A stretch of 56,760 bases of DNA, from the IMG/VR virus record IMGVR_UViG_3300011116_000470, positions 1 to 56,760 of that record. One strand, given 5' to 3'. Made by a program: the position numbers and the translations under genes. Numbering within the stretch: the stretch's first letter is position 1; each line of letters starts with the position of its first letter. The notes below the pieces were generated by a model that saw only the letters and a program-made list of their open reading frames with translations, was not told where the DNA came from and did no database searches. Below, piece by piece: positions 2,849-42,853 of this stretch. The stretch is from a virus (lineage: Duplodnaviria; Caudoviricetes).

Positions 2849-5275
2849 ATGGAGAATATCGGCGGCTTTAGCGATAGTGACGGGTGGTACGCACCAACGG
2901 GGGGTGAAGCGCGTGCGGGTATGGGTTTTGCCGGTACAGGTAGCGGCCTGTCGGGTACAGGCGGCGGCGCAGCGCAAGCGGGTTTTGGTGGCGGGGGATA
3001 CGGCGCGGGCGCAGGGTATTACACAGGGGGCGGCAACGGGGGTCTTACTCCCGGTGCCTTAGAGCGATTAGCCGCTGATAACGCCGAAATAGAGCAAGCC
3101 GCTCGTGAACAAGCTGCCCGTGAAGCAGTGCGTGCGGCGGAACAGCAAGCCGCAGCACAGCAAGCCGCTCGTGAACAAGATGCTCGTGAACAAGCTGCCC
3201 GTGAAGCAGCGCGTGCAGCGGAACAGCAATCCGCTTTTAATGAAGCAAAAAATGTTGATGTTGCGGCGCTCAAGCCTAACCAAGTAGCCGCCATCTTGGC
3301 GGACACAAATTACCCACAATGGCTTAAAGACCTTGTAACCCAAATACAACCCGCAGAGGGCAGCACATTGGAGAAGCTGGGCCTACAGCCCGGCGTTACC
3401 TCTGACCAGTATTTTTCCCAAGAAACACCGGAGCAACGCGATGCGCGCATGAACTTGGTGGGTAAAGGTCTTAATGGGGTTGTAAACGCCTTCATAAGTA
3501 TGTCCCCCATGGGGGCAACGTGGAACGCCATGAATACCGCCGCGAACGTATTGACCGGCAAAGAAACAGTTGGTCAAGCGCTTACGAAGATGGGCACTGC
3601 GTATGTGGCCAGCAAACTGGGCATCCCTACGGGCGCGCTCAATTCAGCACTTGCGGGCGACCTTGGCGGCGTAGCGCAATCATTGGCTATGGGCCAATTG
3701 AATAAAACAATTTCTAACGTCACTGGTTTGCCTTCCGGTTTAGTGTCAATGGCCACGAATGCCACCGGTGTCGGCTCAAATATAAAGTCCGCCGTAAATA
3801 CGGCCATTGGAAGCACGCCTACTGGGTTCAGTACCAACAAAATCGCAAGCGCGCTTGATAGCATTTTAGGAACCGCGCCTGCAAAAACGACTACAACGGC
3901 TACTACGCCTCCAAAAATTTCCATTGACCCAAACGCGAACCCGTATAACGATGTACTTTCAGCTAACCAGCAGCTTTCGTTAGACCGCGCACTAACTGCG
4001 CCTGATACCCCAACTACCGTAGGTGGTCTTGACTCGTTAGACCGCGTAAATGTCACAGGGGCAAACACGGGCGACGGCGCTGGGGTTGGTAGTGAAACAG
4101 TTCCTATCAGGGCGACCTATGGTGCGGAAACAGAAGGCGCATTAGCGCCAGTAACAATTACGGCAAAACGTTTACCTAAAGAAGAAGAAGAACCGCCCAG
4201 TGCGCTTGAAACAGTTCCTAGCACCGCAACCTATGGTACAGAAACAGAAGGCGCATTAGCGCCAGTAAAAATTACGGCAAAACGTTTACCTAAAGAAGAA
4301 GAAATACCTACGCCAGTAATGCCTCCGAATGTTGGAACGCTTGAGCCTGTAACGGGCAGCTTGCCAGTTGCAGCTACCCCCGTGGCTACTACGCCTACGC
4401 CTACGCCTACGCCTACGCCTACGCCTACACCTACGCCAGTAACATCCACCGCCGCAACGCCAACAGGTGGCTTGCCGACAGTTTCAGACGCTACCGCTGC
4501 TGCGGGGCGCATGGCGCAACTTGGAAAAATGGGGTCTTCAGAAATGGGTTACAACCAAAACCTTAGACAACTCAATATGCCTGAATTAACGCAATTTGAG
4601 ATGCCAACCGACGAAACACTATCAAACGTTGACGTGAACAAAGCCTTGGCCGCGTTGGCGGCGTATGCGCCCAACGCCGAGCGCGATATAGTGCCCCAGT
4701 TCTTTGCCGAAGGTGGGCAACCCGATGCGCAGAATTTGTTGGATTCGTACCAGCGGGCCGACATGCAAAAAGCGCTTAAAAATTTAGGTGAAGTAGGCTC
4801 GGGTTTAACGCCTGCCAAGCCCCGAGTGCTTTCTCTTGAAAAAGTAGGTGGCCCAAACCAGCAGCAATCCTTGCGCCAAATGGGTGTAGTACCGCAGCTT
4901 GCAACTATTTTGCGGGCTCGGGGCATGCGTTTGGCCGAAGGTGGCCAGCCCGACCACACCCATCCGCACTACGATGGGACTCCGCTCTTTCGCACCGGGG
5001 GGCTGGAAAGTCTGGGCGGCAAATACGTCGAAGGCAAGGGTGACGGCACCAGCGACGACATAGCCGCGATGCTGGCCAACGGTGAGTACGTCTTCTCCGC
5101 CGATGTAGTGGCGGCGCTGGGCAACGGCTCCAACAAGGCTGGGGCCGAAAAACTAGATGAAATGGTGCAGTCGATCCGTGCTCGGGCACGCTCTGCGCCC
5201 CCCGACAAGCTCCCCCCGGATGCCAAGTCTCCACTAGAATATCTGAAATCCTCAAAGGGGAAAAAGCATGACTGA
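2849..5275 (+). CDS. Putative internal virion/ejection protein with TonB-box-like repeats and a C-terminal GxGTSDxIxAMLxNGEYV domain
   Basis: AAGGA RBS before ATG 2849; low-complexity EQAARE repeats, PT linker, FAEGG/LAEGG/FRTGG motifs; C-terminal domain resembles the end of siphophage tape-measure proteins. Confidence 0.7.
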   Translation: MENIGGFSDSDGWYAPTGGEARAGMGFAGTGSGLSGTGGGAAQAGFGGGGYGAGAGYYTGGGNGGLTPGALERLAADNAEIEQAAREQAAREAVRAAEQQAAAQQAAREQDAREQAAREAARAAEQQSAFNEAKNVDVAALKPNQVAAILADTNYPQWLKDLVTQIQPAEGSTLEKLGLQPGVTSDQYFSQETPEQRDARMNLVGKGLNGVVNAFISMSPMGATWNAMNTAANVLTGKETVGQALTKMGTAYVASKLGIPTGALNSALAGDLGGVAQSLAMGQLNKTISNVTGLPSGLVSMATNATGVGSNIKSAVNTAIGSTPTGFSTNKIASALDSILGTAPAKTTTTATTPPKISIDPNANPYNDVLSANQQLSLDRALTAPDTPTTVGGLDSLDRVNVTGANTGDGAGVGSETVPIRATYGAETEGALAPVTITAKRLPKEEEEPPSALETVPSTATYGTETEGALAPVKITAKRLPKEEEIPTPVMPPNVGTLEPVTGSLPVAATPVATTPTPTPTPTPTPTPTPVTSTAATPTGGLPTVSDATAAAGRMAQLGKMGSSEMGYNQNLRQLNMPELTQFEMPTDETLSNVDVNKALAALAAYAPNAERDIVPQFFAEGGQPDAQNLLDSYQRADMQKALKNLGEVGSGLTPAKPRVLSLEKVGGPNQQQSLRQMGVVPQLATILRARGMRLAEGGQPDHTHPHYDGTPLFRTGGLESLGGKYVEGKGDGTSDDIAAMLANGEYVFSADVVAALGNGSNKAGAEKLDEMVQSIRARARSAPPDKLPPDAKSPLEYLKSSKGKKHD
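4094..4303 (+). repeat. Tandem duplication, 114-nt period (ETVP..ATYGxETEGALAPVxITAKRLPKEEE)
   Basis: Near-identical copies starting at 4094 and 4208. Confidence 0.9.
4391..4438 (+). repeat. (ACGCCT)n hexamer repeat encoding a Thr-Pro linker
   Basis: About 8 tandem acgcct-like units. Confidence 0.9.
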
Positions 5276-6695
5276 TTTAACCCAATCATCGGCGACAACG
5301 GCTACCACAGCGCCGGACTGGTACACCCAGTCGATGAAGAACCTTGCTGCGGGCGCATCGCAGTACGGTATTAGCGGCCCCAACGCGCCCGCATACGTTG
5401 GCGCGCAGCCGTTGCAGACACAAGCGTTTGAAGCGGCGAAAACCAATGTAGGTAACTACCAGCCCGGCTTGGCTACTGCGGGCGGCATGATAGGGCAAGG
5501 CGCGGGCGTGGACATCACAGGCGCGGCTAACCCATACCTTCAAGCCGGTACGTCTAGCTCTGCTGATCTGGTGGGCGGGTACATGAACCCGTATATCAGC
5601 AGCGTGGTGGACAAAATCAGGCTGGCCAATCAGCAAAACATTGCGCAAAACTTGTCGCCGGGTATCACCGCTGGTGCGGTGGGCGCTGGCCAGTTTGGAT
5701 CGCAGCGTGGTGCAAACGCGCTGGCGCTGGGCATATCCAACGCCAACATCGGTGCGTTGGGCCAGCAGGCCGCAGCGCTGCAATCGGGCTATTCTGACGC
5801 GCTCAAAGCCGCGCAAGCGCAGCGTGCCGCTCAACTAAGCGCTGGCCAGATCGCGGGCAACATGGCCACTCAAGAGGCCCAAAAATTCCGTGACTTGTCC
5901 ACCAACCAAATGAACTTGGCTAGGCAGCAACAAGAGCAAGGCGTAGTTGATGTAAACCAGTTGGCCACCATGGGTGAGCAACAACAGAAAATTGCGCAAA
6001 ATAAAGAGCTTTTCCCGCTAGATGTGCTGAACAAACAGGCAAGCATATTCAGCGGCGCGCAGGTGCCCATGTCCACCATCCAGACGATGGAAGGCTCCCC
6101 CCTGTCCGCGATTGCAAGTCTTGGGTCTTTAGGTATGGCAGCATTTGCGCCGGGGGCCAACACCTACGAGCCCGTTTTAGACGCAAACGGTAACCCTACG
6201 TTTGACGCCAGCGGCAAGCCTATCATGAAGATTGTATCGGGGGCGTCCCACGCTGAACGGTTTATAAAGTGGATTCAAGAGGGGCAGAAGGGCGCTCCAC
6301 CTACTCCGCCTGCAAAAACAAATACGGGTACTGGTACGGGCACAGGCGGTGGCTACGGTAACACCGGGGGTAGTGGCCAAACGGGCGGTCAACCGGGTGG
6401 TTCTTTGCCGGGGTACACCCCGCGTGTTATTTCCGATGGTGCGGGCGGGTACATATCTACTGATACCGGCCTGCCTGTGAACGCCGATGGCACCCCGTTA
6501 ACCGGCACTGGTGGCGGCACTGGCGGCGGCGGCATGGGCGGTGAGTACGTGGCTTCCGATGGCGCGGGCGGTTACATAGATACCAGAACCGGCTACCCTG
6601 TGAACGCCGATGGAACCCCGATTGACCAATCCGAGAGCGAAGACACCACGGGCGGATACTGGGATGAAGACGGCAACTGGGTCGAAAACCCATAA
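5268..6695 (+). CDS. Putative ejection (DNA transfer/pilot) protein
   Basis: 475 aa, Gln/Ala/Gly-rich; YMNPYISSVVD and GAGQFGSQR motifs typical of podovirus internal proteins; C-terminal duplicated SDGAGGYI..TG.PVNADGTP. Confidence 0.6.
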   Translation: MTDLTQSSATTATTAPDWYTQSMKNLAAGASQYGISGPNAPAYVGAQPLQTQAFEAAKTNVGNYQPGLATAGGMIGQGAGVDITGAANPYLQAGTSSSADLVGGYMNPYISSVVDKIRLANQQNIAQNLSPGITAGAVGAGQFGSQRGANALALGISNANIGALGQQAAALQSGYSDALKAAQAQRAAQLSAGQIAGNMATQEAQKFRDLSTNQMNLARQQQEQGVVDVNQLATMGEQQQKIAQNKELFPLDVLNKQASIFSGAQVPMSTIQTMEGSPLSAIASLGSLGMAAFAPGANTYEPVLDANGNPTFDASGKPIMKIVSGASHAERFIKWIQEGQKGAPPTPPAKTNTGTGTGTGGGYGNTGGSGQTGGQPGGSLPGYTPRVISDGAGGYISTDTGLPVNADGTPLTGTGGGTGGGGMGGEYVASDGAGGYIDTRTGYPVNADGTPIDQSESEDTTGGYWDEDGNWVENP

Positions 6696-6705
6696 GGATT
6701 AAATC

Positions 6706-8397: not shown

Positions 8398-8403
8398 GGG
8401 TAA

Positions 8404-9747: not shown

Positions 9748-9777
9748 CGATTGTCTCCTAGGTCAATCCTGACCCTT

Positions 9778-12118: not shown

Positions 12119-12119
12119 A

Positions 12120-23681: not shown

Positions 23682-23683
23682 TC

Positions 23684-27271: not shown

Positions 27272-28771
27272 ATGGCAACAAACACTGAGGCGCAATATGA
27301 CACAAAGCAAGAAGGGCCGTTCTACCGCGTCCATCCACGCGCTATTGCGCAAAGTGGAGCACGAACTCAAGGCATACGAGAAGAAGGTGGGGCCAATACC
27401 CAAGCTGCACTCGGATCATCACGAGGCGCAGTTTCGCAATCATCTGAGGATGCGCAGGTCTATGATCTGATACACAGCGGGCGCACGCCCGCGCACCAAG
27501 CGGCGCACGCCTACAGCCAGCGGATGTTTGGCAGGCCCTACGCGCCCATCCCCAACAGCGAGAGCTCGCTCAAGAAACAAGCCCCAATCGGGCGCGTGTT
27601 CATGTTGGCCACCGAGGGCAACCCGCAGTACAAACAAGCGGTGTACGACGCCTATAAACGCCAGATGCCCGAGCACGTCGCAGAAGCCAAGAACTACGAC
27701 GAACTGGTGGCCAAGGCCTATCAGCAACTGAACCGCGAGACCAAGCAGCAGTTTGATTCGCTGCCGGTGAACATGAGCTTTCACAAGAACGGAGAAGGCA
27801 ACTACCGCAGCAGCAAAGAGATGCTGCGCGACATCCACAACAACGGCCATTTGTACGTATTCCAAGGCGGCGAGCCGCACCTGTCCATGAACAACGTTGA
27901 CCCAAGCACTGGGCTCAACGACACCGAGATGTTTAGGGCAGTGCATGACTTCTACGGCCACGCGCTGCACGCAAACGAGTTTGGCCCCAAGGGTGAAGAG
28001 AAGGCATGGGCGGCGCACTCCGGCATGTACAGCCCGCTGGCGCAAGCGGCCATGACCACCGAGACACGCGGTCAAAACAGCGTGGTCAACTACACCCCGC
28101 TCAACGCCCACATCAAGCAGCAAGTGCGCAAGCTCGACGAGGCCGCGTATCATGCCGCCCGCAACGGCGACGCCGCGCAGGCCGAGCGGTTCATCAACCT
28201 CAAGCGGCAGGTGCTAGACGAGGGCTTTACTTACGGCCCGCAGGCGTCGATTCTGTTGCCCCCTGAGATGAACCGAGGCGACTACGAGGGCGGCGTGCCC
28301 CCGTACTTGCGCCCGCTGATCAAACCCAAAAACCCAGCCAGCGCGGAGCTAACGCACTTTAGCAACGAGCCCAACTTGACGCAGACCGACCCCAGCCGAT
28401 ACGGCACGGGCATCAAGGGCGCGGAGGCCGAGCGACTGACCAGCCCCAACGCCGTGCGCAACCGCACCTACTTTTACGCCGGACGCCCCGAGCGCGGTGA
28501 GCCCGGCTTGGGCACCCATCGCTATGCAGCGCGAGCAAGCGACCTATACGACGTGGCCAGCGACCCCGAAGGCCTGCATCGGCTGGCCATTGAGCACAAC
28601 GTTACCCCGTTTAGCGCGCCGTACAATCAGGGCGTGGCCAACCCGCAAGGGGCCTTCACGGACTTGGAGCGATTGGCCCACGAGCACGGCTACGGCGGCG
28701 TGCTGCAACGCAACACACAGATGCCGATGGCGGCAGTATTTGGCGCGCTACCGGTGCGCAAGATCACGTAA
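27272..28771 (+). CDS. Polyvalent-type protein: metallopeptidase-like domain plus ADP-ribosyltransferase-like domain
   Basis: FRAVHDFYGH...GEEKAW..H...ETRGQNS; C-terminal LTHFS...GTG...RTYFY...HGYGG. Confidence 0.5.
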   Translation: MATNTEAQYDTKQEGPFYRVHPRAIAQSGARTQGIREEGGANTQAALGSSRGAVSQSSEDAQVYDLIHSGRTPAHQAAHAYSQRMFGRPYAPIPNSESSLKKQAPIGRVFMLATEGNPQYKQAVYDAYKRQMPEHVAEAKNYDELVAKAYQQLNRETKQQFDSLPVNMSFHKNGEGNYRSSKEMLRDIHNNGHLYVFQGGEPHLSMNNVDPSTGLNDTEMFRAVHDFYGHALHANEFGPKGEEKAWAAHSGMYSPLAQAAMTTETRGQNSVVNYTPLNAHIKQQVRKLDEAAYHAARNGDAAQAERFINLKRQVLDEGFTYGPQASILLPPEMNRGDYEGGVPPYLRPLIKPKNPASAELTHFSNEPNLTQTDPSRYGTGIKGAEAERLTSPNAVRNRTYFYAGRPERGEPGLGTHRYAARASDLYDVASDPEGLHRLAIEHNVTPFSAPYNQGVANPQGAFTDLERLAHEHGYGGVLQRNTQMPMAAVFGALPVRKIT

Positions 28772-28782: not shown

Positions 28783-30579
28783 ATGCCCACGATCAACCAG
28801 ATGCGCCAAGCGCTGATGCAACGAGCCACACGGCGCATGTCTGATGGCGGGCAACCCGACGAGGCCGACGAGAACCCAGATAGCAGGCGCGTGGCCGAGT
28901 CCAAGGCCATGCTCAATCCCAAGGTGCAGACCGTGCGCAATCCGAAGCGCATGGCCTTTCCCGGCATCTACAAAAACCCCAAACAAATTGCCGCCGAGGC
29001 CGCTGCCCGCGTGGAGCCCGAAGACCCAGCGCTCAAGCGCTTGTTCGGCGTCAGCCGTGGCGACTTGTACGAGATGGGTAAGGGCCGCAAAGGCAACCTG
29101 CCGGGCACGCTACCCGGCGCAGCGGCCAATCCAAGGGGCTCCGAAGCCGCTACCGACGTTATGGTTCCTAAAAACCGCCAGCGCTTGATAGACGTGCTGG
29201 GCGAGGCCGAGAAGTACCCTGCGCTGGTGCAGGGCATGGATCCGTGGTATATCACCGACCCGGCTTTTCAGCGCATGGTGCATTTAATCGGTTACGAAAA
29301 CGCCGTGCGCGAATACGACAAGCTCAACCACCTGATAGGCATGGCCTCGCCCGCCAGTGACGTGATGACTGAGATACCACGCGGCACTGCGGCTTATGCG
29401 CTGCACACTCAGGGGCGCTTCCCTGAGTTCGTGAAGTACGCGGGCATGCCCGAAGGCAAGCGCAAGCGCAGCTTTCCCAAGGACATCCGCAACGTGCCGG
29501 GGCATGCCTACCACAAGACCGCACAGGCTGGGCCTATGGCCAAGTATCTTGACCTTGGTGAGATGACCATGAAGACGCCCAAAGTGCCGCTGTACATCCA
29601 AGCAAGCAGCGTGCCCGAAGTAGGTTTTCAGACAGAGACCCCGGTGGGCGACGCGCACTGGAGCCGTGGCGTGGGCTTGGCCGACACCCGCAACTGGAAA
29701 ACCGTTAAGGGTAAAAAAGCTATCCCCGGCGCCAGCGTAACTAACCCTGAGATGTCCGCGCTCAAGCCATGGTGGAAAGAAATTGCCGAGCAACTGGGCC
29801 TTGAGTCTGTTCCAGCCCAAGGACGCGCATGGGGCACGTTTGCGCCGCAAACCGGTGTGGACACGCCCATCGGCGCAGGCAAGCTAGAGCTATTGGCGCG
29901 CAACATTATGTACACCGCCCACCGACTGGGCGTGTCGCCTGAAACCGCCCGCGACATGATCCTGACCGGCAAGACCTACGCAGGCCGCGCAGAAGGAGGC
30001 AGCATCCAAGGGCCATCGCTGGACGAGATGCGCGCCCACCTCGTGCTGCACAAGGCAGACGGCGGGGCCATCGACATCAAGGAAATCGGCGCGGAAGAAG
30101 CGCCCAACATGGACGTTAAAGAGTTCATGAGCCCCGGTATGGACAAGATCAGCCTGCCCATCGGTGGCGTGGACTTCCAGCCGCAGATGCCCGGCAAGCA
30201 GATGCTGCCCGGCCAGCCCCCGCAGCAGCCCGGCATGCCCGGACAGCCGGGACAGCCACCGGGCGCACCGCAAGGCGCTATGCCGCCCGGAGCACCCCCG
30301 CAGGGCGCTATGCCACCCGGCATGCCCAGCGCGCCGCCAGCCCCGCCCAAAGGCCCGCCCAGCAACATCCTAGCCATGACGCCCCAAGGCCAAGCCTTGC
30401 AGGCCATGCGGCCCAACCCTATGGCCATGCCGCGCCCACCCGCGCTGCCCATGAAGAGTATGGCCAAGGGCGGCTCAACCACACCGTCGGCGCAAGCGAT
30501 GCGCAAGGCGCTGGCCAAGCGCAGCCCTAAGCGCGGTGGATCGACCCACGACATCCAACTGACGGAGCGCATGCTGTGA
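28783..30579 (+). CDS. Polyvalent-type protein with putative HhH/DNA-glycosylase-like domain and Pro/Gln/Met-rich tail
   Basis: PWY...ASP...PKV...VGDAHWSR...IAEQLGL..VPAQGRAW pattern; five xxxGG motifs. Confidence 0.45.
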   Translation: MPTINQMRQALMQRATRRMSDGGQPDEADENPDSRRVAESKAMLNPKVQTVRNPKRMAFPGIYKNPKQIAAEAAARVEPEDPALKRLFGVSRGDLYEMGKGRKGNLPGTLPGAAANPRGSEAATDVMVPKNRQRLIDVLGEAEKYPALVQGMDPWYITDPAFQRMVHLIGYENAVREYDKLNHLIGMASPASDVMTEIPRGTAAYALHTQGRFPEFVKYAGMPEGKRKRSFPKDIRNVPGHAYHKTAQAGPMAKYLDLGEMTMKTPKVPLYIQASSVPEVGFQTETPVGDAHWSRGVGLADTRNWKTVKGKKAIPGASVTNPEMSALKPWWKEIAEQLGLESVPAQGRAWGTFAPQTGVDTPIGAGKLELLARNIMYTAHRLGVSPETARDMILTGKTYAGRAEGGSIQGPSLDEMRAHLVLHKADGGAIDIKEIGAEEAPNMDVKEFMSPGMDKISLPIGGVDFQPQMPGKQMLPGQPPQQPGMPGQPGQPPGAPQGAMPPGAPPQGAMPPGMPSAPPAPPKGPPSNILAMTPQGQALQAMRPNPMAMPRPPALPMKSMAKGGSTTPSAQAMRKALAKRSPKRGGSTHDIQLTERML

Positions 30580-33500
30580 GAGGCTTTTACTCACCCATCG
30601 ACCAACTGGCGGCGCAGCTTCCCCGCACCAAGGGAACTGGCGCTGAGTTTATGACCGAGTTGAGCAAGCGCCCCGGCTACAAGCCGCAGGAGGTGCAAGA
30701 CCGCGACTTGCAGACGCTCATGGCCCTGCCCAAGATGGAGCGGGCGCAGTTCCTTGCAGCGCTCAAGGCCAAGCCAGCCCCCAAGCTGGAAGAGACCACG
30801 CTTAACGAAAGAAGCGAAGACCCGACAAAGTATCAGGAATACACCCTACCCGGTGGCAGCAACTACCGCGAGATACTGCTGCAAATGCCGCACGACCCTA
30901 ACCGCAAGGCTGACCCGTCATCCGGCCACTGGGATCAACCCAACGTGCTGGCGCACGTCCGCGCCAAAGACCGCTTGGGCCCCAATGGCGAAAAGATTTT
31001 GCACATTGAAGAAATTCAATCCGATTGGCACCAGCAAGGCCGCGACAAGGGTTACCTATCGCCCGACATGCCTAAACAATTGCAAGCAGCCAAACTTGCG
31101 CACCAGCGTTTAAAAGAGCAGTTGGAACAGGCAAAAGCCAGTTCAGAGCACTCCGAGCGCGGGTTGAATAGTAACAAGCCGCTGTACCAAGACCCCGAGG
31201 TGCGTCAGCGCTTGGAAGCGGCCAAGGTTGAGCACAACAACAAGATCATGGACTTGATGCCGCAGGTCATGAAGGCCGAGGCAGCGCGCCAAGAGTTAGA
31301 ACAAAAAGCAAAGACCGGCGTGCCCGATGCCCCGTTCAAAAAGAACTGGCACGAGTTGGCGCTCAAGAAGATGATCCACCACGCAGCCGAAAAGGGCTAC
31401 GACGCCATTGCCATCACACCGGGGACGGAGCAAGCCAAGCGATATGACCTGAGCAAACAGGTAGGTCGCATCACACACATGACGCATCACGATGATCCTG
31501 ATAGCGGCATTTTGTTCGCTTTTGATCCATCGGGTCGCCAGATAGTAGAAAAGCACAACGTGCCCCATTCCCAACTGCCTGAGTACATTGGTAAAGAAGG
31601 GGCGCAAAAACTACTAGGACAAAAGCCCGATAAGCATGGCTACCGTGAGTTAAGCGGCCAAAACCTTGAGGTTGGTGGCGAGGGCATGAAGGGCTTCTAC
31701 GACAAAATGGTGCCCAGCTTCTTGAACCAGTTTGGTAAGAAGTACGGCGCGCAGGTTGGCACGATGCCATTGGAGTTCAATAAATGGGAGCTTGAAGGGC
31801 AGATGCCAAAACTCGCTGAAAAGCAAGCAACACTGCACCACTTTCCCATCACCCCAGAGATGCGCGAGGACGTGACCAAGAACGGCGTGCCGCTGTACGC
31901 AGAGGGCGGCAGCGTGCCGCATCTGGCCATCGGCGGCCAAGGCCCAAAAAACTGGATCAAAGGTTCGGTGGAGCAGGTGATTGAGCCGTTGAAGTCCACC
32001 GTTGGATTCATGACCCCAGACCGAGTTGCCGAACAACAGCGTTCGATTGATGCGGCACGGCGAATCCTTGGCGCTGAAGCTCCCCGCGCAACCCTTGAGC
32101 AGATGGAGCGGGAAATACAGCAGTCACATCGTGTCGGTGCCATCAACCAATGGATTGAGCGCAACCTTGGGAACTACATTAAGAAGCAGATGGCGACGCA
32201 TGACGACCCCATCCGCAAGTTGGCAGAACAAGGCATCGTTCACATGCCACCTGAGCAGATGGGCTACGGTTCAACACAGGCCGAAGGTGTACGCAAAGTA
32301 CATGGCGCACCACGCCTTGGTCAGTCACCTGAAGCTCAGGCATGGGAAGATGCGACTGATGTGTCGATGTATCCGCATACCATCGGCGAAGTTAGAAATT
32401 TTGCCAGTCATGTGCAAGAGCCTTGGATGGATAAGGTGGGGCCAGAGACCAAAGTCTGGACTGCTTTGGACAACATGCACGCCCGCTACTTGGGCTTTGA
32501 CCACTTGGTGGACATCCTCAAGCAAGACTTGGCTGAAGGCCGCATCCGTCCTGAACAAATGAGCAAGGTCAGCATTGAGCATGCAGTACGCCGAGCACAC
32601 GAGTACGATCAGGAGCGCAAGAAGGCAATGGCCGAGACGGCGCTCAAGGCCACTGAGGGCATGCCAGTCCACAAGGAATATCCTGAAGGGTACAAGTGGA
32701 TTGAGTTGACCTTGCCAGAAAAAGGCGAGCATTTACTCACTGAACTGGACAAAAAAATCATTGCTGATCGCAAAGACAACCCAGTATCGCCAGAGGTAAT
32801 GGATAAAACACTTGATCAAAGAGCGCATGCAAAACTGGAAGAGGCTCTGAAGTATGAGGGCGACACCATGGGTCACTGCGTTGGCGGGTATACGCCTGAT
32901 GTGGCTTTAGGCAAGTCACGCATCTTTAGTTTGCGTGATGCCAAAGGTGAGCCTCATGTGACGATTGAGGTTAAGCCAAAAAGTATTGAAGAAGGAATCA
33001 GAAAACTACCTGATGCAGAGCGCCAAGCTTTGGCTCAGGAAGTTAAAGACCAACATTTTGGTGGAGTAATGCCGGGCGTAAGCAGTGAAGACAAATACTT
33101 CAATCTAATTGACCAACATTACGTTGCCAAGCATGGCATGCCTGCGCCACGCATCCATCAAATCAAAGGCAAAGGCAACGCCAAGCCCAAGAAGGACTAC
33201 ATCCCTTATGTGCAGGACTTTGTAAAGTCAGGCAACTGGTCGGACGTAGGCGACGCAAAAAATGCTGGCCTGCGTAAATACGGAGACGTGTTCAACGTCA
33301 ACGAGCAACGGCAAATAGAGAAAACCGGCGAGCAGGTGCCCGAGCATGAATGGTTGACGGGAGAGGACATTCAACGCTTGCACAACGCCATCGTTCCGCC
33401 GGGCAAGCGCTTGAAATACGATGCCAATGGGAACATCATAGGCAACGAAGGCGGATACGCCAAGGGCGGCAGCATCAAGCCCATCGGCTACACTAAAGAG

Positions 33501-33581
33501 AAAGTTACAGTTTCACCAAACTTAGATGCCATGCGGTACGAGCTTATGAGCGTGAAACACTTTGCAAAGAAGGTTAAATAA
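30576..33581 (+). CDS. Large polyvalent protein with EEIQSDW domain and PcfJ-like domain
   Basis: YTLPGGSNYREIL...LAHVR...IEEIQSDWHQ...AAEKGYD; EGDTMGHCVGGY...IFSLRD...HVTIEV...QIKGKGN. Confidence 0.65.
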   Translation: MRGFYSPIDQLAAQLPRTKGTGAEFMTELSKRPGYKPQEVQDRDLQTLMALPKMERAQFLAALKAKPAPKLEETTLNERSEDPTKYQEYTLPGGSNYREILLQMPHDPNRKADPSSGHWDQPNVLAHVRAKDRLGPNGEKILHIEEIQSDWHQQGRDKGYLSPDMPKQLQAAKLAHQRLKEQLEQAKASSEHSERGLNSNKPLYQDPEVRQRLEAAKVEHNNKIMDLMPQVMKAEAARQELEQKAKTGVPDAPFKKNWHELALKKMIHHAAEKGYDAIAITPGTEQAKRYDLSKQVGRITHMTHHDDPDSGILFAFDPSGRQIVEKHNVPHSQLPEYIGKEGAQKLLGQKPDKHGYRELSGQNLEVGGEGMKGFYDKMVPSFLNQFGKKYGAQVGTMPLEFNKWELEGQMPKLAEKQATLHHFPITPEMREDVTKNGVPLYAEGGSVPHLAIGGQGPKNWIKGSVEQVIEPLKSTVGFMTPDRVAEQQRSIDAARRILGAEAPRATLEQMEREIQQSHRVGAINQWIERNLGNYIKKQMATHDDPIRKLAEQGIVHMPPEQMGYGSTQAEGVRKVHGAPRLGQSPEAQAWEDATDVSMYPHTIGEVRNFASHVQEPWMDKVGPETKVWTALDNMHARYLGFDHLVDILKQDLAEGRIRPEQMSKVSIEHAVRRAHEYDQERKKAMAETALKATEGMPVHKEYPEGYKWIELTLPEKGEHLLTELDKKIIADRKDNPVSPEVMDKTLDQRAHAKLEEALKYEGDTMGHCVGGYTPDVALGKSRIFSLRDAKGEPHVTIEVKPKSIEEGIRKLPDAERQALAQEVKDQHFGGVMPGVSSEDKYFNLIDQHYVAKHGMPAPRIHQIKGKGNAKPKKDYIPYVQDFVKSGNWSDVGDAKNAGLRKYGDVFNVNEQRQIEKTGEQVPEHEWLTGEDIQRLHNAIVPPGKRLKYDANGNIIGNEGGYAKGGSIKPIGYTKEKVTVSPNLDAMRYELMSVKHFAKKVK

Positions 33582-36109
33582 TGGCCGACCAAGACGACAA
33601 CAGCACGGACGATCTGGAGCTTAACGAAGACGGCTCCGTGGACGTGGAACTGCCCGATGATTTCTCGGACATCACCGAGCTGCCCGATGGCTCTGCCGTG
33701 GTGAGCATTGAAACCAAAGGCCCAGAGGAAGCCCCAGACTTCTACGCCAACATGGCCGAGGAGCTAGACGGCTTTGAGCTTGACACGCTGGGCATGCGCT
33801 ACGTCAACCTGCTGGAAAAGGACAAGAGCGCCCGTGAAGAGCGCGACAAGCAGTACGAAGAGGGCATTCGGCGCACCGGCTTGGGCAAAGACGCCCCCGG
33901 TGGTGCTAACTTCATGGGCGCAAGCCGCGCCGTTCACCCTGTTATGGCTGAAGGATGCGTCGATTTTGCGTCCCGCGCCATCAAAGAGCTATACCCGCCA
34001 GACGGCCCGGTGCGTACCAAGATAATGGGCAAGGTCGATGAGCTCAAAACCCAGCGCGCAGAGCGCAAACGGGACTTTTTGAACTGGCAAATTACCGAGC
34101 AGATTGAAGAATTCCGCGACGAACAAGAGCAAATGCTCACCCAACTGCCTTTGGGCGGCTCTCAGTACCTAAAAGTGTGGTACGACGAGCAGAAAAAGCG
34201 TCCGACGTTGGAATTTGTGCCCATCGACCGCATTATTTTGCCTTTTGCGGCCTCAAATTTCTACACAGCGCAGCGCGCAGCCGAAGTTCACGAGATTACC
34301 GAGTGGGAATACAACCGGCGCGTGGCCAATGGCATGTACAAAAGCGCGTTTAAGGTCACTTCTGGCCAAGAACCGGAGCAAACGCTTGCCCAAAAGGCCA
34401 ACGACAAGATCGAAGGCCGCAAATTCCAAGATAACGAGGACGGACTGCGCAAGGTCTATCACATCTACACGTATTTGGAGCTAGAAGAAGACAATTTTGC
34501 CAAAGGCGAGATGGCTCCGTACATCATGATGGTGGACGAGCAGTCCAGCGAGGTCATTGGCCTGTACCGCAACTGGGAAGAGGGCGACGAGACGATGACC
34601 AAGCTCGATTGGATCATCGAATTCAAGTTCATCCCATGGCGCGGCGCATACGCCATCGGCCTGCCGCACCTGATTGGTGGATTGTCCGCAGCGCTGACCG
34701 GCGCACTGCGCGCTTTGCTTGATTCGGCGCACATCAACAACGCCGCGACCATGCTCAAGCTCAAGGGCGCAAAGATCAGCGGCCAGACCCAGCAGATTGA
34801 GGTCACCCAAGTGGCCGAGATCGAAGGCGCGCCCGGTGTGGACGACATCCGCAAGATCGCCATGCCCATGCCGTTTAATCCGCCTAGCCCCGTGCTCTTT
34901 GAGTTGCTGGGCTGGCTGGACAAAGCCGCCAAGGGCGTGGTAACCACCAGCGAAGAGAAGATCGCCGATGTCAACTCACAGGCCCCGGTGGGCACCACGC
35001 AGGCGCTTATTGAGCAAGGCGCTGCGGTGTACTCCGCCATCCACGCCCGCCTGCACCAGTCGCAGGCCCGCTTGATCAAGGTGCTGTGCCGCTTGAACCG
35101 CTGGCACTTTGACGAAATGCAAAAGGGTGACGTGGTTGCCGACCTTGAGATTAGCCGCGAGGACTTCAACCGCAACACCGATGTGATCCCGGTGTCCGAC
35201 CCGCATATCTTCTCTGAAACGCAGCGTATGGCCCAGATGCAGGCCGTGTTGCAGCGGGCAGACGCCCACCCCGACCTGTACGATGCCAAGGCCGTGGAAG
35301 AGCGCTTCCTAAAGCAGATCAAGATACCCAACATCAGCGAACTGCTCAAGGACGTGCCAGCCCCCGAGCAGCGCACGCTGGCCGACGAGAACGCGGCCAT
35401 GTCGCTGGGCCACCCGTCTTATGCCTACATGCAGCAAGACCACTTGGCGCATATCCAAGGGCACTTGATGTTCGGCATGGACGCCAACTTTGGTGCCAAC
35501 CCGTTCATTGCTCCAAAATTCCTGCCCAACGCCATTGAGCACATCAAGCAGCACATGACCCTGTGGTACTTGAACCGCATGAACGGCTACGTGGCCAACC
35601 TGCGCGGCGGCAAGCCGGTGGACAACTACGACGACCCCAAGCTCACCGCCATCATCGACAAGCTCTACGCCACCGTTGGCCAGCATGTCGCGCTGGACAG
35701 CCAAGAGGTGTTCTCGCAGCTACTGCCCCAGCTTCAGCAACTCATGCAAATGCAACAGCAAATGCAACCCCCGCCGCAACTGCCGCCCGATGCGCAAGTG
35801 GTCAAGGACACCAGCATGGCCGAGACCCAGCGCAAAGCGGCCAAGGACACGCAGGACGTGCAGATGGCCCAAGCCCGCATGAAGGACGACCAGCAACGCA
35901 CGCAGGCCGAAATGCAGTCCAAGGCGCAGCTTGCGCAGGCGCAGATTGCCGCAGACTTGCAAAAGCACCAGATGGACAATCAAACCAAGATCGCCATCGA
36001 AAATGCCAAGCTGACGCACCAGACTATCCAGCAATCAAACGAATTGGCGGTAACGCCGCAACCGGCGCAATCGCCACAATCTGAAGGAGTACCTTATGGC
36101 AACCAGTGA
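33581..36109 (+). CDS. Portal protein
   Basis: 842 aa; P22-like podovirus portal pattern (HPVMAEGCVDF, GPVRTK, LPLGGSQYLKVWYD, APVGTTQALIEQG), Gln-rich coiled C-terminus. Confidence 0.88.
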   Translation: MADQDDNSTDDLELNEDGSVDVELPDDFSDITELPDGSAVVSIETKGPEEAPDFYANMAEELDGFELDTLGMRYVNLLEKDKSAREERDKQYEEGIRRTGLGKDAPGGANFMGASRAVHPVMAEGCVDFASRAIKELYPPDGPVRTKIMGKVDELKTQRAERKRDFLNWQITEQIEEFRDEQEQMLTQLPLGGSQYLKVWYDEQKKRPTLEFVPIDRIILPFAASNFYTAQRAAEVHEITEWEYNRRVANGMYKSAFKVTSGQEPEQTLAQKANDKIEGRKFQDNEDGLRKVYHIYTYLELEEDNFAKGEMAPYIMMVDEQSSEVIGLYRNWEEGDETMTKLDWIIEFKFIPWRGAYAIGLPHLIGGLSAALTGALRALLDSAHINNAATMLKLKGAKISGQTQQIEVTQVAEIEGAPGVDDIRKIAMPMPFNPPSPVLFELLGWLDKAAKGVVTTSEEKIADVNSQAPVGTTQALIEQGAAVYSAIHARLHQSQARLIKVLCRLNRWHFDEMQKGDVVADLEISREDFNRNTDVIPVSDPHIFSETQRMAQMQAVLQRADAHPDLYDAKAVEERFLKQIKIPNISELLKDVPAPEQRTLADENAAMSLGHPSYAYMQQDHLAHIQGHLMFGMDANFGANPFIAPKFLPNAIEHIKQHMTLWYLNRMNGYVANLRGGKPVDNYDDPKLTAIIDKLYATVGQHVALDSQEVFSQLLPQLQQLMQMQQQMQPPPQLPPDAQVVKDTSMAETQRKAAKDTQDVQMAQARMKDDQQRTQAEMQSKAQLAQAQIAADLQKHQMDNQTKIAIENAKLTHQTIQQSNELAVTPQPAQSPQSEGVPYGNQ

Positions 36110-36427: not shown

Positions 36428-36446
36428 GGCCGCAAGGCCCCAAGTG

Positions 36447-36485
36447 GCGCTGAAATATGCGCTTTTTCTGCACTGAAATATGTGC
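36447..36485 (+). promoter_or_regulatory. Tandem hairpins with identical UGAAAUAU loops upstream of groES-like gene
   Basis: GCGC-TGAAATAT-GCGC (36447-36462) and GCAC-TGAAATAT-GTGC (36470-36485). Confidence 0.6.
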
Positions 36486-36504
36486 TTTGTCGATAGGAGT
36501 GAGT

Positions 36505-36960
36505 ATGAGTGAAAAACCGATCCCCACAATTGTGGGTAGTGAAAGTGTGTCTGATCCCACCGAGTTGGCGTGGGCGTTTCCAGACGTAAAGCCGGGGCAA
36601 GCCCCCTTTGGCGGGCGAGTGATTGTTCAGCTTCGCCGCATCAAGAAAAATGCGGGAAAGATCATTTTGGTCGAAGAGACCAAAGAGAACGAGAAGTGGA
36701 ACAACATGATAGGCAGAGTCGTGGCCATAGGGCCTTTGGCCTTCAAGAACCGCGACACGATGCAACCATGGGCAGAAGGAAGTTGGGCGCAAGTAGGCGA
36801 CTACGTGCGCGTGCCTCGTTGGGGCGGAGACCGCTGGGAGCGGCCTGTCGTGAACGAGGAAAACGGCGACCTCAATCCCGTGTTGTTTATGACTATCAAT
36901 GACCACGAACTGATAGCTAGGGTCACCGACGACCCGCTTTCGTTCAAAGCCTACGTTTAA
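36505..36960 (+). CDS. groES: GroES/Cpn10-like co-chaperonin
   Basis: PFGGRVIVQ...KIIL..ETK...GRVVAIGP...VGDYV...INDHELIA; AGGAG RBS before ATG 36505. Confidence 0.8.
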   Translation: MSEKPIPTIVGSESVSDPTELAWAFPDVKPGQAPFGGRVIVQLRRIKKNAGKIILVEETKENEKWNNMIGRVVAIGPLAFKNRDTMQPWAEGSWAQVGDYVRVPRWGGDRWERPVVNEENGDLNPVLFMTINDHELIARVTDDPLSFKAYV

Positions 36961-36969
36961 GGAAATACC

Positions 36970-37938: not shown

Positions 37939-37940
37939 TC

Positions 37941-38489: not shown

Positions 38490-38502
38490 CTAGGAGTTTT
38501 AT

Positions 38503-39084: not shown

Positions 39085-39096
39085 GGAGAATAAACA

Positions 39097-40011: not shown

Positions 40012-40019
40012 ACCAAAGT

Positions 40020-40043
40020 AGGGGGGTTAACAGCCCCCCTCTT
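40020..40043 (+). terminator. Hairpin after MCP (weak terminator or stability element)
   Basis: AGGGGGGTT-AAC-AGCCCCCCT, short U tract. Confidence 0.45.
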
Positions 40044-40057
40044 AACTGGAGAAAATT

Positions 40058-40507
40058 ATGGCTCAAACCTATATTGGTTCTACCCTGCGCACGGGCTCTG
40101 GTACGTTGACTGACTCTACCGATGGCGGCTTTGTCGTCGTGAGTCAAACGACTACCGTGACTACCGTGGCCGCAGGTACGGCAGTTTCCGCTACTGAAGT
40201 TCTTCCAGCTTCTTCGCAAATTATTCAATTTTTTATTGATCAAGTTGTGGACGAAGTGGTTGGCGGCGGTACGGCTACGGCCATTAACGCCACCATCGGC
40301 ACGGCTGCTGCGGGCACCCAATATCTTTCGGCAACGAACGTATTTGCGGGCGGACGCGCTGCTTTGACTTTCACTGCGGCTCAATTGTTGGCGATGTCTG
40401 ACATCGGCAGCAACACGACCTTGTACTTCACCATCGCCCCCAACGGCACGATCAGCACGACCCAAGGCGTTTATCGCTTGACCGTTGTGTATGCTCAGAA
40501 AGTCTAA
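40058..40507 (+). CDS. Putative minor capsid/decoration protein
   Basis: 149 aa beta-rich, LPASSQI, IGTAAAGTQY; follows MCP. Confidence 0.6.
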   Translation: MAQTYIGSTLRTGSGTLTDSTDGGFVVVSQTTTVTTVAAGTAVSATEVLPASSQIIQFFIDQVVDEVVGGGTATAINATIGTAAAGTQYLSATNVFAGGRAALTFTAAQLLAMSDIGSNTTLYFTIAPNGTISTTQGVYRLTVVYAQKV

Positions 40508-40519
40508 AGAGGCTATATC

Positions 40520-41533
40520 ATGGGTCAATTCAAACCAATGGTAAAGATGGAGACCACCGAGCCATCAGTGATCCTGAAGCTCAAAAAAGGTGGTCATGTC
40601 GCTATGAATCGTGGCGGCGAGTACGGCTACGCGAATATGCGTTCCAAGGGCATGGCCACCATGCCCGACGACCGCTATACCCCGCCAGCCGCTGCTCCCA
40701 AAGCACCTTCGGTGATGGCACGTCGCGCAGCTATGGCTGCTCCCTTGATGAAAAAAGGCGGGAAAATGGAGAAGCATGAAGATGCTGCTCAAGATCGCGC
40801 CATGATCAAAAAGGCGATGGCTGGCAAGAAGTTTGCTTCGGGCGGCACGACCAAAGTAGTTGACGGCGACAAAACCGACAAGGCGCACGGCACTGGTGAT
40901 GTCAAAATGGGTAAAGCTGCTGGCTACAAAACTGGCGGCACCATCGAAGGCAACGAAGGTAAATTCAAAAATACCAAAGTTGTTGACGGCGACAAGCACG
41001 ACAGTGCTAGTGGCACTGGTAAGGTTCGCATGTCCAATGCTGGCGGCTTCAAAGACGGCGGCTCTACCAACTGGGAAAACCGCCCAGCCAATAGCGCTAA
41101 ACCCGGCAAGTCCAACACCACTACTGGTGAGGTCAAAGAAGCCAATGCTGGCGGCTACAAACGGGGCGGCTCTGCAAAAAAGCATTTCGCCACGGGGGGC
41201 AGTGTTAACGACGCTGGCCATGCCGTGGCAATGCCTCGCAAGCCGGTATCCAAACCGGTGAGCAACACTGCGCAATCGGGCACCTTCAAAAAAGGTGGCA
41301 AAGTCATGCACAAAGCTGATGGTGGTCTTACTGACCTCAGCAGGGGCGCGTATGACAAGTCGATTGGGCCGGGCGAGGACGAAATGGAAATGGCTAACGC
41401 CATCCGTAACGCCCCGTCTGACGCCATGAACGCAGTGATGCGCTTACTGGGCAAGAAGCCTTCTGCTGGAGCAGGTCGGGGGTTTGTAAACCCACCCGTG
41501 ACTCGCAAAAGCGGCGGACAAGCCAAGTGCTAG
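40520..41533 (+). CDS. Basic low-complexity protein built of about 11 xxxGG motifs
   Basis: LKKGG, MNRGG, MKKGG, FASGG, YKTGG, FKDGG, YKRGG, FATGG, FKKGG, KADGG, RKSGG; internal repeat TKVVDGDK.D...GTG.V.M. Confidence 0.75.
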   Translation: MGQFKPMVKMETTEPSVILKLKKGGHVAMNRGGEYGYANMRSKGMATMPDDRYTPPAAAPKAPSVMARRAAMAAPLMKKGGKMEKHEDAAQDRAMIKKAMAGKKFASGGTTKVVDGDKTDKAHGTGDVKMGKAAGYKTGGTIEGNEGKFKNTKVVDGDKHDSASGTGKVRMSNAGGFKDGGSTNWENRPANSAKPGKSNTTTGEVKEANAGGYKRGGSAKKHFATGGSVNDAGHAVAMPRKPVSKPVSNTAQSGTFKKGGKVMHKADGGLTDLSRGAYDKSIGPGEDEMEMANAIRNAPSDAMNAVMRLLGKKPSAGAGRGFVNPPVTRKSGGQAKC

Positions 41534-41536
41534 TAG

Positions 41537-41562
41537 AGTAGGGGCTTCGGCCCCTACTTTTT
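41537..41562 (+). terminator. Rho-independent terminator
   Basis: AGTAGGGGC-TTCG-GCCCCTACT then T run. Confidence 0.8.
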
Positions 41563-41576
41563 AATTGGAGATATAT

Positions 41577-41981
41577 ATGGCAGATGCAGTTACAAGCCAA
41601 ACGCTGATAGACGGCGAGCGCTTGGCTATCATGAAATTTACCAACATTAGCGATGGCACTGGCGAAACTGCCGTTACCAAGGTCGATGTTTCTGCTCTGG
41701 CCAAAAGTGGTTCAGGGCAGGCGTGTACCGGCGTTATCGTGAACAAGATCACTTCGGTATGCCACGGCATGGAAGTGCGTATGTTTTGGGATGCTACAAC
41801 CGATGTGCCGTTTTTTATGAACACAATTAACACCAACTACGAAAATGATTTTTCAAACATTGGTGGCATCACAAACAACTCGGGCGCTGGCAAGAACGGG
41901 AACATCGTTTTTAGTACCGCTGACCAAAGCGCAGGCGATACATACACCGTTGTGTTAGAGATGATTAAAACTTACGGTTAA
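41577..41981 (+). CDS. Conserved phage structural/hypothetical protein
   Basis: MADAVTSQTLIDG..KFTNISDGTGE; GGAG RBS. Confidence 0.75.
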   Translation: MADAVTSQTLIDGERLAIMKFTNISDGTGETAVTKVDVSALAKSGSGQACTGVIVNKITSVCHGMEVRMFWDATTDVPFFMNTINTNYENDFSNIGGITNNSGAGKNGNIVFSTADQSAGDTYTVVLEMIKTYG

Positions 41982-41990
41982 GGACGCATC

Positions 41991-42149
41991 ATGCCGCTAA
42001 TCAAGTCTAAATCCGAAAAAGCGTTCAAAAAGAACATTGCCACTGAGGTCAAGGCCGGTAAACCGGTCAAGCAGGCCGTGGCCATCGCCTATAGCACCAA
42101 GCGCTCCGCACCCAAAAAGATGCGTGATGGCGGGAAAGCCTGCTGGTAG
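41991..42149 (+). CDS. Small basic protein (52 aa) with KQAVAIA and MRDGG motifs
   Basis: AAGGA RBS; not in ORF track. Confidence 0.7.
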
Positions 42150-42151
42150 CT

Positions 42152-42544
42152 ATGGCTAAGCAAGGTCTATACGCCAACATCCACGCCAAGCAAGAGCGCA
42201 TTGCGCACGGCTCTGGTGAAAAGATGCGCAAGCCGGGCGCAATGGGCGCTCCGACGGCGCAGGCTTTCAAAGAGTCGGCCAAGACAGCCAAGATGAAAAA
42301 AGGCGGCGTGTCGCTGGCCATTGGCCGTGGCGAGAAACTTCCTGCCAAGCAGGGCGCGGGGCTTACCGCAAAAGGCCGCGCTAAATACAATCGGGAAACC
42401 GGATCGCACCTGAAGGCCCCGCAACCGCAAGGTGGCTCAAGGCGCGATTCTTTCTGTGCCCGCATGGGGCCTGTCGCTGAAAAAAGCGAAAAAGGTAGCC
42501 GTGCAAGGGCATCAATGCAACGCTGGAACTGCCCCGGCTGGTAA
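42152..42544 (+). CDS. Basic conserved phage protein (DUF6321-like)
   Basis: GLYANIHAK N-module, MKKGG junction, GLTAKGRAKYN...SFCARM...WNC C-module. Confidence 0.7.
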   Translation: MAKQGLYANIHAKQERIAHGSGEKMRKPGAMGAPTAQAFKESAKTAKMKKGGVSLAIGRGEKLPAKQGAGLTAKGRAKYNRETGSHLKAPQPQGGSRRDSFCARMGPVAEKSEKGSRARASMQRWNCPGW

Positions 42545-42553
42545 GGAACGAAC

Positions 42554-42853
42554 ATGGCCAAAGTTAAAAAATTTGCAAACGGTGGCGCTCTTGCCGATGT
42601 GGTAGGCGCGGCTTCCAAGTTCACCGCGCCGCCCGGAGATAGCTCCAGCGCTCCCAGCGCGGCCCCACCGTTCAATTACGGCGGCAGCGGTGCGCCCGAT
42701 GGCGTTACAGCACCCGATGTAGGCCAGACAGAGCGAGAAATCAATGCGGCGTCTATGGCCGCGCCAAACCTGCCAAAATACCGCAAAGGTGGCCATGTGA
42801 CCACCCGCCGCTTGTCAAGCGTCACCAAGTCCTCAAAATCGCCTACTTGGTAA
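42554..42853 (+). CDS. Hypothetical protein with FANGG and YRKGG motifs
   Basis: AAGGA RBS, 99 aa. Confidence 0.7.
   Translation: MAKVKKFANGGALADVVGAASKFTAPPGDSSSAPSAAPPFNYGGSGAPDGVTAPDVGQTEREINAASMAAPNLPKYRKGGHVTTRRLSSVTKSSKSPTW

Follow-up and report, generated by a model that had tools for sequence, protein, structure and literature searches.

We analysed a 56,760-base window of viral DNA that comprises the whole of record IMGVR_UViG_3300011116_000470, which is complete (100%) and has direct terminal repeats at its ends, and we describe here a short peptide tag, [FYML]-[AK]-x-G-G in its strict form, that recurs in the products of seven late genes of this phage. These genes, all read on the plus strand and starting at positions 2849, 28783, 30576, 40520, 41991, 42152 and 42554, hold 26 loose copies of the tag, of which 16 are strict (2, 1, 3, 8, 0, 1 and 1 in gene order), and each copy, including the 11 in the 40520 gene, was found where the original prediction had placed it. 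The extended form xxxGGQPD, which the original prediction had reported for two genes, is indeed present in two: the 2849 gene has FAEGGQPD and LAEGGQPD, and the 28783 gene has MSDGGQPD. The strict form was not found in the portal (33581), the capsid protein (39097), the terminase (25821) or the polymerase (12120) of this genome, again as predicted.

The gene at 2849-5275 encodes an ejection-type protein of 808 residues, counted from the ATG at 2849, with FAEGG at 4703-4717, LAEGG at 4931-4945 and FRTGG at 4988-5002. Its conserved C-terminal block (4895-5272, plus strand) contains a tape-measure-type module, FRTGG...GKGDGTSDDIAAMLANGEYVF. Two further carriers are large cargo proteins of the polyvalent type. 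One of them has 598 residues (28783-30579) and bears MSDGG (28837-28851), RAEGG (29986-30000), KADGG (30052-30066), MAKGG (30460-30474) and PKRGG (30526-30540). In its AlphaFold2 model a folded helical domain occupies approximately residues 45-404, while all five tags lie in flanks of low predicted local distance difference test score (pLDDT), the glycine pair 405-406 standing exactly at the end of the folded domain. The fold resembles HhH-GPD DNA glycosylases (VIA-align against 3n0u_A: Z 10.5, root-mean-square deviation 3.4, 185 aligned residues), and glycosylases make up most of the top 20 VIA-align rows; Foldseek gave no match to this model in the PDB at E<=0.001. An injected enzyme that modifies DNA or counters restriction is one possible identity of the protein. 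Homologues of it are found fused to ART-PolyVal (PF18760) or to DUF6321 (PF19846). The second cargo protein, of 1001 residues (30576-33581), has a phrog_7348 region at residues 95-444 and a PcfJ-like domain at 675-803, and bears the tandem pair YAEGG (31896-31910) and LAIGG (31923-31937) as well as YAKGG (33456-33470). After this last tag comes a C-terminal element (33516-33578, plus strand) consisting of a helix motif, PNLDAMRYEL, and a basic end, KKVK; a comparable tail, [YF]KKGGKV..DTMxLEL..KKAK, closes most of the 34 polyvalent homologues listed.

The remaining four carriers are small or disordered. The 40520-41533 gene encodes a Lys/Gly-rich protein of 337 residues with a net charge of +28 and 11 tags (8 strict; at 40580, 40604, 40748, 40832, 40925, 41048, 41156, 41186, 41285, 41312 and 41504), which is predicted to be disordered (AlphaFold2 with 69 sequences: mean pLDDT 45.8, predicted template modelling score 0.12) and which matched solely unnamed viral clusters of a protein atlas, with scores below 0.9. 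The product of 41991-42149 is a small basic protein of 52 residues that consists of a phrog_2423 module and ends in MRDGG-KACW (tag at 42120-42134), its longer homologues ending in FK[KAS]GGKV..(S)CW. The small basic protein encoded at 42152-42544 has two modules, D (phrog_16028) and E (DUF6321), with MKKGG (42293-42307) between them. The earlier claim that the tags bracket globular domains is supported by the flanking tags of the 28783 protein. The last gene, 42554-42853, encodes a protein of 99 residues with FANGG (42572-42586), FNYGG (42671-42685) and YRKGG (42779-42793). Most carriers are basic, from +6 to +28 in this genome and up to +46 in relatives; those encoded at 2849 (-19) and at 30576 (0) are not.

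To judge such counts against chance, we shuffled the residues within each protein, so that composition was kept. The strict motif occurs 23 times in all 64 open reading frames (ORFs) of the window against 4.32 expected (standard deviation 2.1), a number reached in none of 1000 shuffles, and when the repeat protein encoded at 40520 is left out it still occurs 15 times against 4.17 (0 of 1000). In the seven genes alone the count is 16 against 0.98, and in the six genes other than 40520 it is 8 against 0.75, neither being reached in 3000 shuffles. That the tag is common to non-homologous late proteins, as had been proposed, is borne out. The accompanying caveat, namely that loose matches occur by chance elsewhere, held for the glycine-rich fibres and the single-stranded-DNA-binding protein, and the other 57 ORFs taken together are not enriched (7 strict copies against 3.48 expected, with 69 of 1000 shuffles reaching 7). 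It needs to be mentioned that the pattern was defined post hoc, from the same data, and conservation in homologues is therefore the independent test, which the motif passes. A lack of enrichment over shuffled sequences and a lack of positional conservation in homologues had been named in advance as findings that would count against the tag; both enrichment and conservation were observed.

Conservation was assessed in 80 related viral loci. ORF calling was crude (longest ORFs taken greedily, minimum 45 residues) and gave 1291 ORFs, which were assigned to families by their best BLASTP hit at E<=1e-5. The homologues are non-independent samples, and their identities run down to 30-60%, so the sets do not consist of near-identical copies. 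Among relatives of the 28783 protein we counted 46 strict copies against 3.4 expected (17 proteins, at least one copy in each), among those of the 30576 protein 32 against 2.1 (15 proteins), of the 40520 protein 613 against 21.2 (71 proteins), of the 41991 protein 6 against 0.3 (14 proteins) and of the 42152 protein 68 against 4.0 (61 proteins); for the 42554 protein, with just 2 homologues, the count was 4 against 0.0. Enrichment is thus 10- to 30-fold among the relatives of five of the seven genes. Portal relatives (40 proteins) and capsid protein relatives (57 proteins) contain no strict copy, with 2.4 expected for each set, which extends to the relatives the claim that these proteins lack the motif. 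Relatives of the adaptor had 3 copies against 1.9 expected (53 proteins), those of the 44283 protein 3 against 10.0 (40 proteins), and the 617 of 1291 ORFs that stayed unassigned, which were retained in the count, had 30 against 21.8.

Deeper homologue sets gave the same picture. The 120 homologues of the 28783 protein contain 215 strict copies where 26.0 would be expected, even though 27 of these proteins are without one, and all 54 aligned homologues keep both G405 and G406. For the C-terminus of the 2849 protein (120 homologues) the count is 224 against 36.3, with no homologue lacking a copy; in 61 aligned C-termini LAEGGQPD and FRTGG are conserved in at least 90% and FAEGG in at least 60%. 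The family of the 40520 protein is very large, with at least 4876 proteins at E<=1e-3 among the 8000 that were scored, has neither a name nor a Pfam family, and carries 7-12 tag copies in each of its best 120 members.

The alignments also allow the motif to be described more fully, as G-[YFMLK]-[AK]-x-G-G-x-[VI]. The fourth place before the end of the glycine pair is Ala or Lys in 98-99% of cases and the bulky residue is the fifth (124, 89 and 639 distinct instances in three sets), so that bulky residues are kept on both sides of the pair, at position 0 and, as V or I, two places after it. Tandem pairs with copies 8-9 residues apart are frequent, and position 0 is Met in 42% of the 89 instances from small proteins. 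At the level of DNA the motif is diverse. Its glycine codons are a mixture of GGC and GGT, the V/I position is encoded by GTT, GTC, GTG, ATC, ATG or GTA with no preference, and there are 746 distinct 21-mers, of which 3.2% contain GGAGG. As the codons vary freely, selection acts on the peptide and not on the codons.

The position of the motif within proteins is not random either. Comparison of 35 mosaic cargo proteins by BLASTP gave 806 internal breakpoints, and 60.9% of these are no more than 10 residues away from a motif, while random placement gives 10.5% (highest of 500 trials, 18.6%); this test may be inflated, as the motif can itself anchor the ends of alignments. The small proteins are varied combinations of five modules (phrog_2423, 'MPSKSPAQ', 'SLKKAGFYE', phrog_16028 or D, and DUF6321 or E), and every joint between them reads K-[MLFY]-K-x-G-G. 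Counted over distinct proteins, E starts internally in 42 cases and D in 18, and the motif stands directly before the start in 36 and 14 of these, respectively. Stand-alone ORFs start with MAKN(N)P-SLAIG and MAKQG-LYANIH, colinear with the joint, and the joint thus coincides with a natural N-terminus. In the T7-like cyanopodoviruses P-GSP1 and S-RIP1 D and E are separate ORFs without a tag, which indicates that the tag is not part of the modules themselves. Copies of the tag are also placed close to protein ends, 7-23 residues from N-termini and 4-8 residues ahead of conserved ..C or ..CW ends, with the form GG-K-x-x-(S)CW in the small proteins and GG-x-A-K-C in the repeat family.

An observation apart from the position of the tag concerns these last residues: the tagged small proteins and the repeat family (40520-42853 here; loci L004-L083) end in Cys or Trp, as ..AKC, ..SCW, ..CPGW or ..PTW. 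Out of the 1291 ORFs of the related loci, 65 end in C and 100 in W, and these are concentrated in the tagged families.

The motif is shared with tape-measure proteins. The 2849 protein carries a tape-measure-type module, in which the tag is followed by GxGxGxSD..A..NGE[FY][VI]. A tape-measure family (PHROG 6090) matches residues 740-776 of the longer ORF that starts at 2801 (E 2.5e-4), a phmmer search with the C-terminus of the 2849 protein found two repeats in the tape-measure protein gp16 of mycobacteriophage Douge (8zdo_S, E 1.2e-5), and tblastn with the same query found 89 phage records, mostly annotated as actinophage tape-measure proteins. No tape-measure family of Pfam (E<=0.01) or NCBIfam (E<=0.1) was found for the 2849 protein or for the other six. 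The original prediction had named FATGG, YATGG and MRDGG for the C-terminus of lambda gpH, and in J02459 all three are in place (FATGG at 733, YATGG at 778 and MRDGG at 842-846); moreover, residues 733-770, FATGG..GGKY..GEFVF, align with FRTGG..GGKY..GEYVF of the 2849 protein. Unlike the 2849 protein, gpH is a ruler in the tail lumen of a long-tailed phage, and the genome studied here has no tape measure. According to the part of PMC12617516 that deals with its maturation, about 14 kDa are removed from the Gly-rich C-terminal region of gpH, at a site and by an enzyme that are unknown; we computed that a cut after F733 would give fragments of 79.8 and 12.5 kDa. In the parts of PMC10721106 and PMC12617516 on the tail, gpI holds a three-helix coiled coil made of residues 818-842, and residues 818-849, which include MRDGG, were modelled as one continuous piece in virions (PMC10721106). 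A second likeness is to T5 pb2, which is matured to pb2* and pb2C: its RAEGG at 1127-1131 is identical to RAEGG 402-406 of the 28783 protein and is one of just 2 loose copies in 1219 residues. In pb2 this is a single copy and not, as here, a tag spread over the proteome.

The motif is real and conserved, is selected as a peptide, is placed at seams and is shared with tape-measure proteins. We regard it as a conserved 'seam', marking module borders and N- or C-terminal trims of the proteins that this podovirus-like phage most likely stores in its particle and ejects. The carriers are an ejection protein with a tape-measure-type end, the two polyvalent cargo proteins before the portal, the disordered Lys/Gly-rich protein and the small basic multi-module proteins. 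The gene order (terminase, cargo, overlapping portal start) and the basic charge suggest that the cargo proteins would be carried in the virion and delivered. The reading that we favour, if at a chance short of even, is that the seam is a site of post-assembly proteolytic processing. A cut in the seam or just beside it would release the modules, would chop the disordered 40520 protein into short basic pieces and would remove terminal handles, in parallel to the maturation of siphovirus tape-measure proteins that would bear the same peptide where they are cut. The enzyme could be of the host, could be a phage enzyme that is not recognised as such, or the cut could be self-cleavage. Processing is suggested by the seam position together with the short terminal trims, the disordered protein with its many sites, the joints at natural N-termini, the tape-measure parallels and the processing that has been predicted for polyvalent proteins; the virion location, the occurrence of a cut and its register are inferences. 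A broader version of this idea seems somewhat unlikely as it stands: a single peptide code common to tailed phages, [bulky]-[A/K]-x-G-G-x-[V/I], would be read by one maturation activity (a host enzyme or assembly-triggered self-cleavage) that would cut tape-measure proteins (gpH within or next to F733-G737) and also, in the particle, the cargo polyproteins of podoviruses, so that the 337-residue protein would yield about a dozen basic peptides and DUF6321-type modules would be released.

Several results weigh against cutting at the seam. No candidate enzyme was detected: Pfam, run on 40 of the 64 ORFs, gave no peptidase except the M15 endolysin and no C39, C48 or C5 family, none of the 64 ORFs contains HExxH (searched as HExxH/HxxEH), the JAB model PF14464 is absent from all six frames of the record, and NCBIfam gave nothing for the seven proteins or for two head-module proteins that were scanned. 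Bulky residues conserved on both sides of the glycine pair would also suit a binding motif. The phage collection contains a single near relative, the uncultured spring-water phage MW202545. Caulobacter phage RW and Roseobacter phage CRP-902 have the portal-to-capsid module in common with this genome, yet essentially no motif. As gpH 818-849 is continuous in the virion model, the MRDGG copy within it is a helix cap that stays uncut after GG. As a precedent for cutting at the motif, T5 is contested. Linares et al. place the maturation cut of pb2 after R1127, that is inside the motif (..VPR1127|AEGGMMY..), in the relevant part of PMC10038345, whereas the passage on this site in PMC11937520 points to an older assignment, after V1148 +/-1, and mentions that R1127 is a trypsin site.

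The search for an enzyme was also carried out with PHROGs (30 ORFs) and NCBIfam (10 proteins), and no protease was found in these sets. The proteins encoded between portal and capsid (GroES-like, 322-residue coiled-coil and two of about 185 residues) match no protease family, and a profile of the 322-residue protein gave 0 hits among PDB sequences. The 182-residue head protein, with conserved Cys and His, was considered as a possible cysteine protease and dropped, these residues not being kept in RW, HTVC027P or CRP-902.

In the consensus of proteases that act at glycine pairs (C39, adenovirus and ubiquitin type), the fourth place before the end of GG is taken by a bulky residue. The original prediction had pointed to C39, JAB/Ub-type and adenovirus enzymes, and these do not fit: here the bulky residue is one place off, in the fifth position, the fourth is Ala or Lys, and no cognate gene was found (Pfam, 40 of 64 ORFs; JAB, six frames). 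Short peptides common to unrelated internal proteins couple loading or maturation to cleavage both in T4, through the capsid-targeting sequence and gp21, and in adenovirus, where core proteins, which are basic DNA-associated precursors, are cut at (M/I/L)-X-G-G|X. In the 40 of 64 ORFs covered by Pfam there is no prohead protease or adenain-like gene, unlike in those systems, and membership of our motif in either type is not supported.

Polyvalent proteins are a further known system. Iyer et al. (2017) predicted that they are delivered with the DNA and processed into units, and proposed zincin-like peptidase domains as the processing agents (in the relevant sections of PMC5512222). The cargo proteins described here are likewise large, mosaic and multi-domain, in a late or virion gene context, with the HhH-GPD-like domain in the 28783 protein and the PcfJ-like domain and phrog_7348 region in the 30576 protein. 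They differ in that no embedded peptidase family was found in the 27272, 28783 and 30576 proteins by Pfam or as HExxH. The words 'glycine' and 'linker' occur 0 times in the text of PMC5512222.

The same observations may be read without any cutting. One tentative possibility is that the tag serves, uncut, as a handle for docking or packing. As a short linear motif it would bind a site that recurs in the particle (on the portal, the inside of the shell, the scaffold or a plug in the tail lumen), and cargo would in this way be loaded and retained, the disordered protein with its 8-12 copies acting as a multivalent tether. Disordered context, two bulky anchors flanking a GG turn and multivalency are typical traits of short linear motifs, and the unsuccessful search for a protease (Pfam, HExxH and JAB) speaks in the same direction, as does the architecture of the cargo C-termini, in which tag, DTMxLEL helix and basic tail stand directly ahead of the overlapping portal gene. 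There are structural parallels too: in the mature lambda virion the gpI tripod accommodates the helix that ends in MRDGG, as described in parts of PMC10721106 and PMC12617516, and the cargo protein gp45 of crAss001 binds the portal wing inside the capsid, in the portion of PMC10172136 on this protein. However, tape-measure proteins are not loaded into capsids, which excludes capsid loading as a function shared by all carriers; at the joints of the small modules the tag is the whole five-residue linker, which leaves little room for a receptor; and no candidate receptor gene follows the distribution of the motif among the relatives. A complex prediction of the portal with the 70-residue C-terminal tail of a cargo protein gave no answer (score 0.00) and speaks neither for nor against binding. 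Simple DNA binding does not agree with tag contexts that span from acidic (FAEGGQPD, YAEGGDV) to very basic (FKKGGKV), and DNA binding by the tag was set aside in view of the acidic ones. Binding to GroEL was another candidate. The mobile loop of GroES reads KSAGGIVL, and the idea was dropped because the motif is without the hydrophobic triplet.

It is distinctly unlikely, in our estimate, that the tag is a passive hinge or helix cap and a recombination seam, that is, a flexible GG joint that would let strings of modules thread the tail channel and would ease their swapping, with neither reader nor enzyme. T-even adhesins, in which swapping is mediated by glycine-rich motifs, provide a precedent. 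Mosaic breakpoints fall together with the motif, helix 4-20 of the 28783 model runs into MSDGG at residues 19-23, and the lambda motif terminates a helix (as modelled in the part of PMC10721106 on gpH). A hinge, on the other hand, needs no bulky residue, no [AK] and no V/I at fixed distances, it leaves the copies that lie a few residues from protein ends unexplained, and codons as diverse as those seen in the 746 distinct 21-mers leave little DNA identity to drive recombination. Still less probable, and in fact very improbable, is that chance and the composition of Gly-, Lys- and Ala-rich proteins produced a pattern that was fitted afterwards. The post hoc definition, the small surplus in the other 57 ORFs and the loose matches in glycine-rich fibres, the single-stranded-DNA-binding protein and a scaffold-like protein are in line with it, while the composition-keeping shuffles, the invariant glycine pair of the 28783 homologues, the conserved LAEGGQPD and FRTGG and the many copies in all 120 relatives of the repeat protein are not. 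We find it barely conceivable that the motif is a nucleotide signal in which GGAGG with GTG or ATG would serve as internal ribosome-binding sites and starts, the modules being translated separately. Met is frequent at position 0 and stand-alone ORFs start exactly at the joint, but GGAGG is rare among the motif instances, the glycine codons are mostly GGC or GGT and the V/I codons are unbiased; a Shine-Dalgarno or internal-start reading of the GG codons was ruled out by this diversity.

A literature search found no description of the motif in ejected or cargo proteins. Polyvalent cargo, tape-measure maturation and targeting peptides are known kinds, and a single peptide running across all of them was not found in the literature searched. 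If the tag is a processing or loading signal, it would provide a sequence rule for spotting particle-carried, injected proteins of uncultured phages; in the repeat-protein family alone, 4876 or more proteins are without a name and outside any Pfam family. It would also explain the free swapping of modules among mosaic cargo proteins and would give a testable prediction on where, and by what, lambda gpH is cut, a question that has been open since 1974 (both site and enzyme are unknown according to PMC12617516). A short portable tag directing proteins into or out of the phage head would be useful for engineered phage protein delivery.

The late genes that surround the carriers are arranged as follows. 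The small terminase (25331) and large terminase (25821) genes are followed by three large pre-portal genes (27272, 28783 and 30576) and by the portal gene (33581), whose ATG overlaps the stop of the 30576 gene. Between portal and capsid lie the gene for a GroES-like co-chaperonin of the head module (36457-36960; Pfam 20.9 bits, cut-off 21.1) and those for the 322-residue coiled-coil protein and two proteins of about 185 residues (182 and 193). After the HK97/Mu-type capsid protein (39097) come the small genes, in a row from 40058 to 42853, and then an SU10-type adaptor (42863), fibres, a holin and the M15 endolysin. Across the ends of the record, a virion protein gene and the 2849 gene follow. 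Distant cultured relatives, by similarity of the portal, are Caulobacter phage RW, Roseobacter phages CRP-901 and CRP-902, and Pelagibacter phages HTVC027P and HTVC023P. The full tag system is present in MW202545, and HTVC027P has sparse copies in small basic post-portal proteins, in pre-portal proteins and in ejection-type proteins; gp44-gp47 and gp82/gp84 are among the proteins of HTVC027P with such copies. The GroES-like gene of the head module is kept in RW, CRP-902 and HTVC027P.

Some smaller observations were made on the cargo genes. The Shine-Dalgarno sequence of the portal gene, GAAGG at 33569-33573, lies within the KKV codons of the 30576 gene, and the basic KKAK/KKVK end is thus partly a translation signal; as a pure protein signal this end is partly explained away by the portal ribosome-binding site. 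At 33567-33583 the last cargo codons read AAG AAG GTT AAA TAA, with the portal ATG overlapping the stop. A second short motif, P-[ST/N]-x-x-x-M-R-x-x-L, stands beside the GG tags at 28786-28815, 30013-30042, 30484-30513 and 33516-33545. It is predicted to be helical at 3 of these 4 sites, all in the modelled 28783 protein (residues 4-20, 413-418 and 570-578); the fourth is in the 30576 protein. The conserved C-terminal tail of the relatives' cargo proteins has this motif in the form D-T-M-x-L-E-L. The first pre-portal gene, 27272-28771, has no tag in this genome and a single match, phrog_3170. Its product has a VHDFYGH stretch and no HExxH, and relatives of 925 residues in two of the loci (L055 and L062) do have tags.

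Modules D and E of the 42152 protein were found in 417 phage records, mostly of cyanophages (Synechococcus 287, Prochlorococcus 39) and pelagiphages (24). A 412-residue protein of MW202545 (18832-20070 of locus L001) has a C-terminal run of CCCS repeats, ..CSDCCSCCCSCCCSCCC..

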